Shown here: positions 9,001 to 15,000 of the stretch, one piece after another
Position numbering within the stretch: the stretch's first letter is position 1
Layout: each line of letters opens with the position of its first letter
IMG/VR virus record: IMGVR_UViG_2740892369_000014
Length of the DNA stretch: 27,818 nucleotides
Source of the DNA: a virus
Lineage: Duplodnaviria > Heunggongvirae > Uroviricota > Caudoviricetes
Strand: one strand, 5' to 3'
Position numbers: made by a program

Positions 9001-12000
9001 TACCCGCACGTTACCTCCAGATGCGTTGCTGGAATGTGCGGGACGGACGCGGCGGGCGTTCGGAATAAAGGAGCCTGACGTAGATTATCCAGTGACGGTA
9101 GTCGAGGCTAAGGGCTTTCTTAAACTCATACCCACGTCTGCGGTAGTTATGAATCAGCCATTCGGCCTGTTCTTCAGTGCAGGGATCGTGCTGATACCAG
9201 TCATATTTGAATGTGTGAGAACACCGCCCTTGCCTGCTGGCAGGGGCGATATCAGAATTGTGATGTTTGGTATTGTGCGCCATCGGTTTTCTCTGCTGGC
9301 GCAGCAGGTGCCAGTTGTTCAAGCTGGCGTGCGGCAATATTGTCTCTGATTTCTGTTGTCGTCAACAGGCAACGTGCTATCATCGAATGGTGTTCTATCC
9401 TACTCCGTGAGGTTTACCATGCGTACAACCCAACAATTCAGCATTACATTAACTAACGAAATGGCTGACATGGTGCGCGCCCGTGTGGCTTCCGGTGCCT
9501 ATGCTTCAGAAAGCGAGGTCATTCGTGAAGGGCTTCGCGCACTGAATGAGCGCGATAAAGCAATCGAAGCGTGGTTAACGCATTCAGCCGCCCCCTCTCT
9601 TGATTCTATCCGCGAAAATCCAAACAACGGACGCTCCATTTCACAGGTTCGCGCCGCGATTCGATCCGGGAAGTAATCTGCATGACATATGAAGTCATCA
9701 TTACTCCTGAGGCCGAACAACAAATAATCAACCTGCACAGGTATATAACGGAGAAAGCAGGGAACGTCATTGCTGACAATTATGCCAATGCGCTTCTTGA
9801 TTATCTTGATGGGTTTTCTACATTCCCGCATCGGGGCAATAAACGCGATGATATTCGCCAGGGGATGCGGGTAACTCATTTCCGCCACAGAACGATTATT
9901 GCTTTTGCCGTTGATAGCAGAAAAGTCTTTATTGTCGGTATCTATCATGGTGGGCAAAGTTATGAAACCGATTTCTTATAAACTTTTACCCACATCATTC
10001 CGGTGTTAGAATTAACCGTCCGCCCCCTCTCTTACTGGCGGATTCGTAGGCTATATAAATCAAAGATCCCGGCTCATGTTTATGTCGGGATCTTTTTTCG
10101 GCGATTTATCCCCAGCGGCAAATCGAATACACCACCAGCGCCACCGCCATCGCAATTCCTACCGTTGTGAATGCTTCAGGCCAGGTCATCGTAAAATATC
10201 CTCCACGCTTATCAGTCCGTTCCGCTCCAGATAACTCATCGCCTTATCCGGTAATTTGCAGTCTGGCTTCGCTTTCCTCAGTTGCCAGGTTAACTGCTTT
10301 ACCAGCATGGTTAACTCATCGACCAGACGCTGATATCCCACTGGTTTGTATTCATGCAATTTACCGGCTGGCTCTGCTGCCAGCGATACCAGTGCGATTT
10401 CCAGAACAGCAATATCCATCTTATATGTGCGGATGATGTCATGGTCGATTGTGCCCGGTATGCACAGTCTCTGTGTTTCAATAGTCTCCTCTGCGTGAGC
10501 TATTAACTGCTCTCTGGTAAAAGTCGTCATGCCGTAGCCCCTTCTTGATATTTTTCAAACCAGAACACAACTGGGTCAGATTTCATTTCAACCAATCCCA
10601 TACGAACCAGCGCTTTGCCTTTCCCGGACGCAAGGAATTCACGACGACCATCACTGATAATTCGCCGATAATCTTCCAGACTACTGCAATGCTTGTGCAG
10701 ATTGCATGGGTGGCATGCCGGAACCATGTTGGATATATCGTCACGTTCCTGGTGAAGCATATTTCCATCAAAACGAATGACCGGTTTTACATGGTCTGCA
10801 TGCCACTTTTCGCCAAGTTCGCAGCCGCAATAAGCACAGCGACCGCCGAACTTCATGCGCAGCTCTGCACGTTGTTTTTTCGTCAGTGCCATATCAGCTT
10901 TCCTTATACGGATTAATTTTATTGTGCAGTGTGCTGAACGACGCCCACACCACGTCGTTATACAATTCAATAACTGGCTCAATTATTTTCACGATAAACC
11001 AGACCAGTAATAGCGGGGGTATCGGTATCATCAACACGATAAATATAATGAGAAACAAAAATTCTGTCGCTCTACTTTTTCTCGGATATTCTTTTCTGAA
11101 TAATGTAGTCATTTCTTACCGCCCTTTCAGGCGGCCTCCTGATGTTTTGAGGGTGCAGAAATCCCTCCGGTTAAGGATTAAATTTTTAACTAAATTTAAT
11201 TATTCAGGCGCGATAAGCTGTTCCGCACAATCCAGCAATGCTTCTGTCGCTTCCTTAAGCGTTACTGTATCGCTATCATCCAGTCCTGCAACTTTTTCGT
11301 ACCTGACAAACGCCGCGCAAAGCTCGTTAAACAACCCCGCCCGTACTTCAGCCAGGAAAGCGTCGGTGGCCGGAGTTTCAGGAATCCGTCTCCTCATCCG
11401 TTCTATTGCATGATTGAACCCGAAATCTTCAGCAAGAGATACGTCATCCATATTGTCATTGTCGTCCTCAATATCCCGTGGTTCTGGAATTGCAGACTTT
11501 ATTACCGCATTCTCCGCCGCCAGCGCCACAAGATTAGCTTTCAGCTCTGCAATTCGTTTGTTTTGGGCTTCCCGTTCATCCAGTAGTGCCAGCGCAACAT
11601 TTGGATTAAAAGCAGCAATAAATTCAGCGTTTGCATAAGCCTGAACATCTGTTTCAACCAGGCAGTTAACATGACATTCTGCAATTACGCCACCGGGCTC
11701 TCCTTTCCATTTTTGACAAACAAAAACTCCTGTTATATTCCCATGCTGATTGCCCGATGTATGCCCTACGATGTAGCATCCTTTAGTTGCTTTCTCTGCT
11801 GCTTCACGCAGCGCCTGATAGTCAATCTCGCTCATTCATCGCCCCACTCATCACAATATGCTTCGACCGGATTTTTTCCTGCTTCATAATCATCACGCCA
11901 TGCTTCAGCATCAGCAGCACTGCCACCACGTAACTCTGCATATTCCATTAACAGTTCATGCCATTCTTCAAAACTGACGCTGTATTTAGTTGAACCAAAA

Positions 12001-15000
12001 TCAGCCATTTTGTTCTTCCTCTTCGTCTTTTATTTCGTGATATGAATAATTGCAGTAGTTAAAGAAAATATCTTTTGCTTCGTCATGTATTTCATCAGGC
12101 GTCGCATCATCATCCACTTCGAATTCATCCTCGAAATCTCCACCGGCTATTCCCGTTTCAATAATTATTTTAAACTTTCGCATTTAACTACCGCCCTTTC
12201 GGGCGGCCTCCTGACATTAATCGTTGTGGTAACTCATGGCTTCATTTGCAACATCAACCGGATCAACCTCCCACCAGCAATAATTTGGTGCGTTTCCTTC
12301 AGGTGTCCACGGTTCTAATTCATTTTTTGCCGCATTCTCATCGCCAGTAATTTTAAAAATCTGCTCAGAGAATTTTCTTGCCCACTCGTTATATTTTTCC
12401 GCATTAATGGCTTTCTGTGTATTTAACATAAATATACCTCCAGTTCAGGATTAGATTTTATTTACAGCGCTAAATTTATTTATTCAGTTCTGGATTTTGT
12501 CGCCCTGCGTATCCGCGCTTTCGCGTTACGTTCAATCTGAATTAACTTTTCTATATTTTTCCGCCTTTCCTGTTCCTCCTGGCGCAATAGCCTTACATCA
12601 TCTGCCAGTCTGGTTTCTCTTTTCGCCACAGAGAGCATCCAGTCAAACGGCTCCACAACCGCACCGCAGATTTTACAGCGGACCTGGCGCTCTTTTTCGT
12701 CAACCCGAACAGAGGCGTGATGACAATATGGTCTTTCCGATGGCTCATAAAGAAAATTAACCTGATTACGAGGGTCATCCTCTTTTACCGGAAATAAAAC
12801 GATATTGCTTAACTCATCCTCTGGTTTTATTTCCATGCTCCTCTCCTTTGATGCGAATGCCAGCGACGCGTAATGCGTGTTCTAGGTCAATCAGGTAAAG
12901 CCAACTGCCATTTTCTTTAGGTATCATGACATGTCGCTCATCTGCATTTATCGGGTGTCCATATCGAAGGTCGTAGCGAGTCGGTAATTGAACTTCCCGC
13001 GCATCCAGTTCAGCAATACGCTTGCTCCCATCAGAGATAACGCCTTCGTAATACTCACGCTGCTCGTTGAGTTGTGATTTTGCTTCTTCCAGTCCATCCA
13101 GCAAACCAGCGATAATATCCGCTTCCCGATGACGGATATGACGCTTAAACGCAGCAAGAGCCGCATCACAATCCCGTTCAGCATTTGGGCTGTCCGGGGT
13201 AGCCTGATACCACGCCAGCGTCGACTGATAGTTTTGTGCTGCCTCACGAAGCGCCTCATAGTTAACCTCTCTCATCGAGCCACCTCCTGATAAATCACCG
13301 CATGCCCCAGTTTCTCCGCCAGTGCCAGCTCTGCCTTAGCGCCCGCTGACCGCTGCCAGCCATTCAGCATGTAAATCGCATCCACACAACGAATCATTGC
13401 CATGCAAATATCCATGTAGTGCGGCTGTGTCAGCCCGTCCGGAAGTACTGCCGGAGTTAAGACGGTATGCCCTTCCCGTTTCAGTTCCTCTTCCGCCTTG
13501 TGAAACGCCTCACGGTTGAAATTTTCATATCCCGTCATTGGACCGGCAATATAAACTCTCACCCTCACTCCATCACCTCCTGAAAGTTTCCCCGATAGAA
13601 CGCCAGCACACGCTGCATAACTTCGCTCTGGCGGCACTCACGACAAATTATGTTCTGCCGTCTGTTGTAACGACGTATTTCTCCGTCAGGTAACTTTCGA
13701 ATCAGTGTCGGGTCAGCAGCCTTCTCCGGTGTCTTACGCCATACGCGATACGCCTGCTCTGATGGAAATACCCCGCAACCAGAGAGCCAGACATCACCAC
13801 TGGCCGCAAGCGCACCAGATAAACGACGAATAGCGGTCTTACTGACACCCGTTTTATCTGCCAGTTGTCGAAAAGTTTCTCGTCCGCTCAGGCGCACGAA
13901 TTCCACAATGCGCGCCTTCACTTCTTCCCGCTCTTCTGGTGTAAATTCTTTTGCCATAAGCGCCTCCGGCAATCACTTTTCCGATACAACACGGCGGGAA
14001 GAATCAGTAATCTGTCGAACAATATCCCGGTGCTTGTTCAGCTCCCGCAGCGCGGCGCAGACTCGCTCCCACTTCTGAACCTGACCTTTTGCCCGGCGCA
14101 GCTCGCGGTTAGCCACATGCAGCGATGGTAAAATCAGACCATCCGGATGTTTTCTGGTGAACGACGGCTGTGACTGCACTGTGACCGCCACACTTTCCGT
14201 TTTTATTTCTTCCTGTGTTTCTGCTTCCCGAACTGGTAACGCAACACCTGCTGGCTGAGGAAAGGCTTTACCATCGGTTTCCGCTACGGATGCAGCTTCC
14301 GGCTCTGCCGGTAAATCAGCGCCCGGTATGCAGTAACGAAATTTACCGCCCTGATTCACGCGAATCAGACGCCCTTTGCTGATTACCATGGCCAGCGATG
14401 AATTCGCCCGGCGGGAGGTAATCCCGAACATCAGTGCCAGCTCATCCGCCGTTTGTGGGCCATGTTGTTCAATCGCCTCAGTCAGCATTTGCGCTGTCAC
14501 TTTCGGTACCGGTGACACCGGTTCACTTTCACCAGCCTGAATCAGCCACCACATCGACCCCTTGTTATCCGCTTCACCGCGGCGCTTCAGTTTCCACAGT
14601 TCGTTGACCGCATCTTCACGGCTGATTCCAAGGCGGGCCGCCACTACCTGTGAAGAGGCTCTTTTCAGTGCTTTCAGTGCGTCAAATACGGTTTCCATTA
14701 AAATTTCCTCCGACAAAATCGTTTCTCAGATTCAAATAAAACCAGCTGCCTTCCGGCGTTCGTATTCCTGTTTCAGCCGCTCAATTGGCGTTGGCCCTTG
14801 CGGGTGTTTCGCCCCTTCCAGTTGTCGTCGCACTGGCGGAACACTCATCCCGTTACCAACATGCTTTGCCCATTTCGTCAGTTGCCGTTCTGCAAGTAGT
14901 TTTAACTCACCCTGCGTCATCTGGCGCTCAATCCCTCTGGTACGCATTTCGAGGCAGATGTGGTACAGCACAGGCTGTGGCCACGGGTATTTATCACTCC

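Follow-up and report, generated by a model that had tools for sequence, protein, structure and literature searches.

Six minus-strand genes and their setting

The window analyzed here is a 27,818-nt stretch of a Caudoviricetes genome (IMG/VR record IMGVR_UViG_2740892369_000014), and we are concerned with a block of small genes at positions 11200-13275 within it. From the open reading frame (ORF) listing and a reading of the minus strand over 11000-13500, we found six consecutive minus-strand ORFs inside this interval, named A (12814-13275, 153 aa), B (12480-12836, 118 aa), C (12217-12429, 70 aa), D (12001-12183, 60 aa), E (11832-12008, 58 aa), and F (11200-11835, 211 aa). About 96% of the interval is coding, on a single strand. 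An earlier, sequence-only reading had counted seven minus-strand ORFs here; the seventh is reached only by adding a DUF4406 gene (13272-13568, minus strand), which lies outside the interval. This gene encodes a 98-aa nucleoside 2-deoxyribosyltransferase-like protein (PF14359, 2.3e-37; phrog_355; RefSeq annotation) and is directly upstream of A, its stop overlapping the A start (ATGA).

The same reading had described all of these ORFs as chained by overlaps and preceded by good Shine-Dalgarno sequences. The chaining holds for DUF4406/A, A/B (23 nt), D/E (8 nt, ATGGCTGA), and E/F (4 nt, ATGA) and fails at B-C and C-D, where there is no overlap and gaps of 50 and 33 nt separate the genes. E, which overlaps both D and F, is translationally coupled to both, and the 8-nt D-E overlap is preserved in 35/37 D-E pairs. 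Good Shine-Dalgarno sequences are present for A, B, C, and E, at 6-9 nt. That of F is weak, so F probably relies on coupling via its ATGA overlap, and D has an AGGAG 25 nt 5′ of its ATG, beyond a 7-bp hairpin.

Compared to diverged copies in other E. coli prophages, third-codon-position changes are in excess in all six frames. The ratio of nonsynonymous to synonymous change (pN/pS) is 0.02-0.12 for B, 0.06-0.12 for D, 0.10-0.16 for the C-terminal part of A, 0.17-0.32 for C, 0.17-0.29 for the N-terminal 267 nt of F, and 0.27-0.51 for E. All six genes are real and under purifying selection (0.02-0.51), as had been supposed from the sequence. The refuting observation named at that time, a lack of conserved reading frames across homologous regions, is not borne out: the frames are kept, and frameshifted or stop-bearing copies of B, D, and neighboring genes are found in visibly decaying prophages (E. 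coli W, JNEC-KY180).

Over the interval, sequence identity is 100% to a prophage of enterohemorrhagic E. coli (EHEC) O26:H11 11368 and likewise to prophages of O103, O45, and related strains. Shiga toxin (Stx) 2a-converting phages, including ArgO145, match 84-87% of its length at 99.4-99.8% identity. At least 80% of the interval is carried by 126 of 5426 complete E. coli genomes and some part of it by 2968; in another strain, the block is found on a 91-kb plasmid bearing phage-type genes.

Annotation of O26:H11 11368 gives the order cro-like, YdaT-family, O-like, P, DUF1627, DUF977, DUF4406, and A-F, after which come DUF4014, HNH, one hypothetical gene, the oppositely oriented ParDE, DUF968, RusA, and DUF1133. 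Because this order is syntenic with lambda, we infer that in this window the block belongs to the early-right operon, at the position equivalent to nin, which bears out the early location given by the sequence-only reading; the nin-type position itself, and the independent mobility of the cassettes described below, had been missed. The nin region of lambda lies between the replication genes and Q and consists of packed small genes that are variable and dispensable. The block resembles the nin regions of lambda, P22, and their relatives (NinB, NinE, NinF, NinG, NinH, RusA, YbcO, and YlcG) in this replication-Q position, in its packed and overlapping small genes, and in the occurrence of B homologues among bona fide Nin genes in other genera, but no match to a Nin Pfam family was obtained for any of the six proteins.

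In ArgO145, the same genes are located in the early-left (exo-xis) region, between the SSB gene and an orf63-like DUF1382 gene. Besides this physical placement in ArgO145, the block shares with the lambda exo-xis region a set of small, early, dispensable genes that includes an Ea22-type protein. It differs from that region in its apparent early-right, nin-type location in this window, in having two Ea22-type genes rather than one, and in the identity of the remaining genes: B to E are not orf60a, orf61, orf63, orf73, or ea8.5, and no DUF1317, DUF1382, or other such matches were found in Pfam. Promoter-like and terminator-like sites in 9800-14000 showed no excess over shuffled sequence, which is consistent with read-through transcription. 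An Rfam scan of the same range matched no family.

Protein families encoded by the block

No catalytic domain was identified in the six proteins by Pfam, PHROGs, or NCBIfam, the last of which returned nothing. Pfam and PHROGs gave no annotated anti-restriction, anti-CRISPR, or other anti-defense family, and all PHROG matches are labeled "unknown function". Searches with PADLOC-DB component models reached at best E 0.03 at 11-12 bits, with no credible match, and comparison of A, B, C, and F and of D and E profiles to all PDB chains gave nothing at E<0.03. A search of the literature turned up no paper on DUF7167 or on the RefSeq protein accessions. Predicted isoelectric points (pI) are 4.05 for D and E, 4.47 for C, 4.51 for F, and 8.5 for B.

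A and F both match PF13935 (Ead/Ea22) above its gathering threshold of 27 bits. For F, the match scores 135 bits (3.5e-39) over residues 2-164 and covers positions 1-138 of the 139-position profile, so that F contains a full-length Ead/Ea22 domain; for A, it scores 43.5 bits over residues 3-66. In BLASTP, A aligns to lambda Ea22 at E=5e-17 (40% identity over 118 aa) through the N-terminal peptide and coiled coil, whereas for F only the first 16 residues align, although its Pfam match is full length. A begins with the MREVNYEALREAA peptide (MSEI..ALREAAE) and continues with a coiled coil homologous to that of lambda Ea22 (AKSQLNEQREYYEGVISDGSKRIAEL; shared segment AKSxLNEQREYYEGVISDGSKRIAxL), a non-lambda C-terminal part, and an AGIRIKGE tail, which is also the C-terminal end of lambda Ea22. 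By these alignments, A is nearer to lambda Ea22 than F is. The "RseB domain-containing" label given to A by the Prokaryotic Genome Annotation Pipeline (PGAP) and RefSeq is spurious: the MucB_RseB match scores 23.3 bits against a cut-off of 22.3 and is partial, covering profile positions 90-140 of 178 on the lambda-Ea22-homologous coiled coil.

Ea22 proteins are composed of a short N-terminal segment, a coiled coil, and a C-terminal domain and form tetramers, with C termini that vary while the architecture is kept (PMC10834534). In sequence, the C-terminal domains of A and F show no relationship to the lambda domain whose structure has been solved; in the C-terminal part of A, the last eight residues (AGIRIKGE) are the only stretch that aligns with lambda. 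The lambda-type domain, a mixed alpha-beta dimer determined by nuclear magnetic resonance, was not detected in A or F (no PDB match at E<0.1); the paper describing it predates the PDB copy searched, and the presence of the entry in that copy is unconfirmed. Stx-phage Ea22 C-terminal domains are likewise unlike that of lambda (PMC10834534). F carries a separate, recurring C-terminal module at residues 154-211 and matches two PHROGs, phrog_368 (1e-60) and phrog_27745 (4.4e-28, last 58 residues). PGAP annotates F as a pseudogene in O26:H11 11368; we do not find this call persuasive, since the identical ORF is annotated as intact in the inducible Stx phage ArgO145 and its C-terminal module is a recurring PHROG.

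The sequence-only reading had assigned a Cys/His zinc ribbon to one protein. This protein is B: all 30 homologues compared, some with as little as 44% identity, retain C38, H40, C54, and C57. The AlphaFold2 model (predicted local distance difference test score, pLDDT, 73.8; predicted template modeling score, pTM, 0.37) has a disordered N terminus, a small ribbon with strands at 43-46, 51-54, and 60-61, and a single 55-residue helix at residues 63-117, so that four conserved ligands are combined with two beta-hairpin knuckles. Also conserved are the N-terminal peptide TETExELSNVVxFP and the C-terminal half of the helix, LRxEExxRRxNIEKLIQIERNAKARIRR, which is nearly invariant on every helical face. 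Foldseek comparison of the model to the PDB returned generic zinc ribbons at E>=0.34, the top match being the N-terminal ribbon of TFIIB (E=0.34). Zn_Ribbon_TF scored 21.5 bits in B compared to a 29-bit cut-off, and S27e was below threshold both as a family (13.8 bits) and in the PDB (E=0.55).

B matches phrog_1621 (1.5e-56), has 150 homologues across Enterobacterales, and is conserved over its full length in about 10 genera. Full-length homologues occur in Klebsiella, Kluyvera, Yokenella, Salmonella, Erwinia, Serratia, Pluralibacter, and Yersinia, and phage matches reach Hafnia, Providencia, Morganella, and Cronobacter. B is found in the distal nin region of Yersinia, Serratia, and Klebsiella prophages, next to or one gene from Q, in the orders NinG-NinH-B-x-Q, YbcO-RusA-B-Q, and YbcO-B-YlcG-Q. 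In ArgO145 and phage Tyrion, it adjoins Ea22-like genes in other regions. We think that B may bind either nucleic acid or a host partner that is itself strongly conserved.

C, D, and E are small acidic proteins. C matches phrog_4659 (8.4e-51), is found in eight phage records, all from E. coli, and is confined to E. coli and Stx-type phages. D is a DUF7167 protein (PF23768, 55.1 bits against a gathering threshold of 24.4; residues 2-53, profile 1-60 of 60); its homologues also carry the PF23768 tag, and nearly all are from E. coli. With pI 4.05 and 20 of 60 residues D or E, it is the extremely acidic protein noted from the sequence, a description that E fits by pI as well.

The AlphaFold2 model of D (pLDDT 78.6, pTM 0.60) is based on an alignment of seven sequences, because word-indexed searches for D and E homologues gave close relatives only. 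The predicted fold is beta-beta-alpha-beta (strands 2-10, 15-23, and 45-51; helix 29-39) and ends in an acidic tail. D resembles T7 Gp2, phi29 p56, T4 Dmd, and some anti-CRISPR proteins in size, charge, and the presence of three strands and one helix in the model, and Gp2, p56, and Dmd are among its best fold matches, but all scores are below significance, there is no sequence or profile relationship to them, and PurS and Lrp/AsnC-type domains score equally well. The top Foldseek match was p56, at a non-significant E=1.1 (probability 0.23, TM score 0.43-0.48). Homology of D to T7 Gp2 in particular was rejected after profile comparison, which gave no significant similarity. DNA-mimic inhibitors of restriction or of uracil-DNA glycosylase (Ocr, ArdA, p56, and Ugi) gave no Pfam or PHROG match and no significant fold match.

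E has no Pfam family; it belongs to phrog_519 and is recognized by the motif F.EW..L...A...G.S.AD.DAW..DY..GKTP..A..DEWG. The family occurs in 196 phage records, including virulent Ackermannviridae infecting Salmonella, Escherichia, and Klebsiella (~55% identity) and a T5-like phage; a homologue at 71% identity is encoded by the 111-kb phage EP_H11. An exhaustive hidden Markov model search of 1.84 billion representative proteins gave 76 E clusters, nearly all of stand-alone proteins of 50-65 aa. In EP_H11 (L011:2006-2662), the 60-residue E-like domain forms the C terminus of a NADAR (ADP-ribosyl hydrolase) protein. Full-length NADAR-E fusions were found in 4 of 646 phage records and in none of the 76 family representatives, and the block itself contains no NADAR gene. 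NADAR enzymes are deployed by phages against DarTG1 (PMC11257639), and the fusion may be taken as a weak hint of counter-defense at most.

In Enterobacter cloacae complex prophages (L198-L201), an E homologue (76% identity) is directly 3′ of an Ea22-family gene, the pair occurring both near int/xis and after O/P; in E. coli, E precedes the Ea22-type gene. Because they adjoin in both Enterobacter and E. coli, E and Ea22-type genes are recurrent neighbors across genera, whereas D-E linkage is specific to E. coli. We rejected two further relationships: C and E are not recognizable paralogues (BLASTP E=3.2), and the "NapD chaperone" upstream of the Kuttervirus E homologue has no similarity to D.

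Junction sequences and cassette mobility

BLAST match patterns divide the block into three independently distributed units, B, C, and D+E. B is present in 1679, C in 563, and D+E in 1908 of the 5426 complete E. coli genomes, compared to 126 for the whole block. Most prophages carry a B-D-E array that lacks C.

A linker of ~90 nt accompanies these units. Its first half, after B (12430-12487, minus strand), has a three-frame stop (cTGAaTAAaTAA...TAG) followed by an AT-rich spacer and a TAATCCTGAACTGGAGG motif that doubles as the Shine-Dalgarno sequence of C. The second half (12184-12216, minus strand) contains a free AGGAG, a 7-bp GC stem with a GAAA loop, 7 nt, and the ATG of D; this hairpin, GCCGCCC-GAAA-GGGCGGU, has a predicted energy of -16.3 kcal/mol (z=-3.1). 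A complete copy, marked by repeats D3 and D9, leads from F to a DUF4014 gene (11113-11207, minus strand; fold z=-3.0), and direct repeats D1 and D9 in the first linker half match it. This copy comprises a three-frame stop, a GAGGG/CCCTC hairpin, AGGAGG, the GAAA hairpin, and a start 5 nt past the ...GGGCGGTA motif. The DUF4014 gene (10894-11112, minus strand; PF13198, 5.7e-22), which encodes a hydrophobic 72-aa protein, is the next cassette, outside the interval.

On the coding strand, the linker reads cTGAaTAAtTAAatTTAG ... TAATCCTTAACCGGAGGGATTTCTGCACCCTCAnAACATCAGGAGGCCGCCyGAAAGGGCGGTA(n4-7)ATG, and its three-frame stop (TGAaTAAtTAA) places stops in all frames inside 11 nt. The 24-nt hairpin core is present at 12189-12212 and 11117-11140 in the window, with 0 copies expected by chance. 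An alignment shows near-identity between the 87-nt F-DUF4014 spacer (11113-11199) and the spacer that joins B to D where C is absent. Gene C sits exactly between the first GGAGG of the linker and the hairpin, and is a single-gene cassette nested inside the linker.

We collected 122 copies of the hairpin among the IMG/VR matches listed, a biased sample obtained with exact seeds only. The start codon follows the hairpin by 4-7 nt, and the gene after it is DUF7167-like in 56 copies, of the "MTELTKEQLI" type in 29, DUF4014-like in 20 (plus 4 frameshifted), and of the "MQEIKENIRQ" type in 5. The ~90-nt linker therefore leads at least four unrelated gene families. Where enough upstream sequence was available, the full linker with three-frame stop was present in 96/118 of the listed copies; among linker-less copies in the same matches, the 3′ end of C is upstream of the hairpin in 19/20. 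The linker was also found in loci L003, L004, and L006.

Two further junctions lie inside genes, by a few codons. At the A/B junction (12814-12865), the 52 nt upstream of B encode ...GIRIKGEEHGNKTRG together with the Shine-Dalgarno sequence of B. This 5′ flank of the B cassette travels with B even where no Ea22 gene precedes it, matches the end of lambda ea22, and encodes the tail AGIRIKGE(EHGNKTRG) of Ea22-type proteins, including that of A. At the start of F (11815-11835), the MSEI(N/D)YQ head is found on the gene after E in 36/37 cases, and that gene is usually not Ea22-like. The sequence-only reading of two Ea22-like proteins with a common N terminus is upheld as to the family, and 9 of 14 N-terminal residues are identical between A and F; the shared N terminus itself is partly junction sequence, because the head follows E whatever protein comes next. 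These comparisons show cassettes that are exchanged as whole genes at short conserved junctions, namely the ~90-nt linker and the intragenic AGIRIKGE tail and MSEI(N/D)YQ head.

Gene-boundary exchange at short conserved flanks is also a feature of the boundary sequences of lambdoid mosaics (the Hendrix-Juhala and Clark models), and relaxed homologous recombination among lambdoid phages fits exchange at such junctions (PMC3945230, PMC2327257). The junction described here differs from those boundary sequences in being a defined composite (stop, Shine-Dalgarno sequence, GNRA hairpin, and start) reused before at least four families, and in having gene C nested inside it. It provides a concrete, testable account of gene-by-gene mosaicism in lambdoid accessory regions, and a composite junction leading several unrelated cassettes is the more original by-product of this analysis.

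Two effects of the hairpin can be imagined: drawing the upstream Shine-Dalgarno sequence near the AUG, or masking the GGCGGU of the 3′ arm. Covariation was not significant: 95.8% of cells pair, with one compensatory change, and shuffled controls reach the same score in 174-203 of 500 trials. Conservation of the linker may simply reflect recent common descent. We considered the bolder proposal that the junction is a dedicated "cassette adaptor", which terminates the upstream frame, re-initiates translation via a hairpin-bridged ribosome binding site, and supplies homology for gene swaps, with D-E, co-inherited and coupled in translation, as a new host-targeting two-protein module, and we think it improbable. 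If it were true, these arrays would be a promoter-less phage analogue of integron-style cassette arrays.

Role of the block and neighboring genes

We consider the interval to be probably an ordinary mosaic array of non-essential accessory genes on the delayed-early transcript of a lambdoid (Qin/Rac-type) prophage, a counterpart of the lambda nin and exo-xis regions. Judging from gene order and the lambda paradigm, transcription from pR would continue past the replication genes into the block, which would lack promoters and terminators of its own, and translation would proceed in the coupled groups DUF4406-A-B, C, and D-E-F. The products are small and predicted to be non-enzymatic (Ea22-type proteins A and F, zinc ribbon and basic helix protein B, and the tiny acidic domains C, D, and E) and would probably bind phage or host macromolecules stoichiometrically in early lytic growth. 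In such a scheme, A and F would influence the choice between lysis and lysogeny in the way of lambda Ea22, B would bind nucleic acid or its conserved host partner, and D and E would titrate a host protein.

The only experimental knowledge on any family in the block concerns Ea22, which favors lysogeny in lambda and Stx phages (PMC7093339, PMC10834534); deletion of ea22 in lambda and Phi24B results in faster lytic development and less lysogeny (PMC7093339). Such a pro-lysogenic role is not an anti-defense role. The finding is an ordinary accessory-gene block and not a new system: public genomes already carry annotations for the six ORFs, which belong to existing Pfam and PHROG families of unknown function, Ea22 being partly characterized.

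Several points weigh against this account of the block. Transcription from pR and lytic-only expression are drawn from synteny, and the roles and binding partners given to the six proteins are deductions. Pro-lysogenic activity is known for the Ea22 proteins of lambda and Phi24B, whose C-terminal domains differ from those of A and F. With no significant covariation in the hairpin, an RNA-level role of the linker is unproven, and the IMG/VR counts come from the biased, exact-seed sample of listed matches described above.

Among the alternatives, the one that survives best is the suggestion of the sequence-only reading that these are host-takeover or anti-defense candidates, with B, C, D, and/or E as stoichiometric inhibitors of host immunity or host enzymes. 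One possibility is that D works as an acidic inhibitor of the DNA-mimic type, comparable to T7 Gp2, phi29 p56, or Ocr, and is partnered by E. The proteins are indeed small, acidic, early, dispensable, and highly mobile, and the E family spans temperate and virulent phages (Ackermannviridae, T5-like), as counter-defense genes often do. The E-like domain is also fused to NADAR in four phage records, but at 4/646 the fusion is rare. The searches of Pfam, PHROGs, NCBIfam, PADLOC, and PDB sequences returned nothing in its favor, Pfam and PHROGs in particular holding no anti-defense annotation for these proteins, and the proposal is to this extent unsupported. The fold of D is generic, PurS and Lrp/AsnC-type domains scoring equally, 60 residues is small for a DNA mimic unless it is oligomeric, and D is essentially limited to E. 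coli prophages. Since the positive evidence consists of no more than size, charge, mobility, sub-threshold fold neighbors, and a rare NADAR fusion, we treat an anti-defense island as speculation, possible and yet rather less likely than an ordinary accessory array.

A second alternative, which we judge unlikely, is a nin-type role in DNA transactions or regulation, chiefly for B, which would bind DNA or RNA in recombination, replication, or late-gene timing. As a zinc ribbon with a dimeric basic helix, B would then act like the neighboring NinB, NinG, NinH, and RusA. Its position between NinG/NinH, RusA, or YbcO and the Q gene in Yersinia, Serratia, and Klebsiella prophages points in this direction, but a nin position is not functional evidence, as the nin region is itself a collection of unrelated accessory genes, and B adjoins Ea22-like genes elsewhere in ArgO145 and Tyrion. 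The invariant C-H-C-C ligands, the Lys/Arg-rich helix conserved on all faces, and purifying selection that is strongest in B within the block (pN/pS 0.02-0.12) are consistent with such a binder. So are its best, weak matches, the nucleic-acid-associated zinc ribbons of TFIIB and S27e; no DNA-binding family reaches threshold, however (Zn_Ribbon_TF, 21.5 vs 29 bits), and the structural model of B is of moderate confidence (pLDDT 73.8, pTM 0.37).

Less probable again is a role in prophage defense or superinfection exclusion, in which the small proteins would shield the lysogen like the defense "morons" of prophage hotspots. Variable prophage loci often harbor defense genes, and toxin-antitoxin modules are present in the same prophage region (ParDE, 9419-9981; HigBA, 17543-18207), with hokD in relatives. 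The six genes, however, have the orientation of the operon, are closely coupled to early lytic genes, and show no promoter-like site above background, so they should be silent in a repressed lysogen; ParDE, by contrast, is on the opposite strand. Classical morons differ from the cassettes described here, which have no promoter or terminator of their own. The best PADLOC E of 0.03 is not credible, and the E family is also found in strictly virulent phages.

That these are chance or decayed ORFs without function, as the PGAP pseudogene label on F and the stops and frameshifts in B, D, and their neighbors in some cryptic prophages might suggest, is effectively refuted by pN/pS values well under 1 for all six, full-length homologues across genera, conserved overlaps, and an F that is identical and annotated as intact in an inducible Stx phage and ends in a recurring PHROG module.

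As an accessory array, the block is of interest for several reasons. B or D+E is present in about a third of complete E. coli genomes, and both also occur in Stx2a-converting EHEC phages; if Ea22-type proteins modulate induction, this would have a bearing on Shiga toxin release. B is an unusually conserved orphan across Enterobacterales, and the compact D-E pair would suit interaction screens.

Downstream of the block, directly after the DUF4014 cassette, an HNH endonuclease gene (10527-10892, minus strand) overlaps both of its neighbors. It is followed by a gene for a 114-aa hypothetical protein (10186-10530, minus strand), which has no Pfam match and belongs to a heavily mosaic protein family; its C-terminal module is also found in proteins beginning MSEINYQ or MTELTKEQLI (L005:1989-2504; IMG/VR loci). 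The ParD/ParE type II toxin-antitoxin pair is a plus-strand insertion within the nin-type region, at a site where related prophages have hokD, and the HigB/HigA-like type II pair, on the minus strand, is near the immunity region.

Three tRNA genes (Arg, Arg, Ile; ~5485-5736, minus strand) lie downstream of a helix-turn-helix gene (5765-6478) and are followed by a TerB-family gene, DUF3927, a SASA esterase gene, and a lysis cassette, all by RefSeq annotation only. This tRNA site is the position of stx in Stx phages. At ~22907-25483 (plus strand), the integrase is annotated as frameshifted and adjoins an EspV fragment and the gene for an EspF-repeat protein, both related to type III effectors, suggesting a defective prophage with effector cargo.

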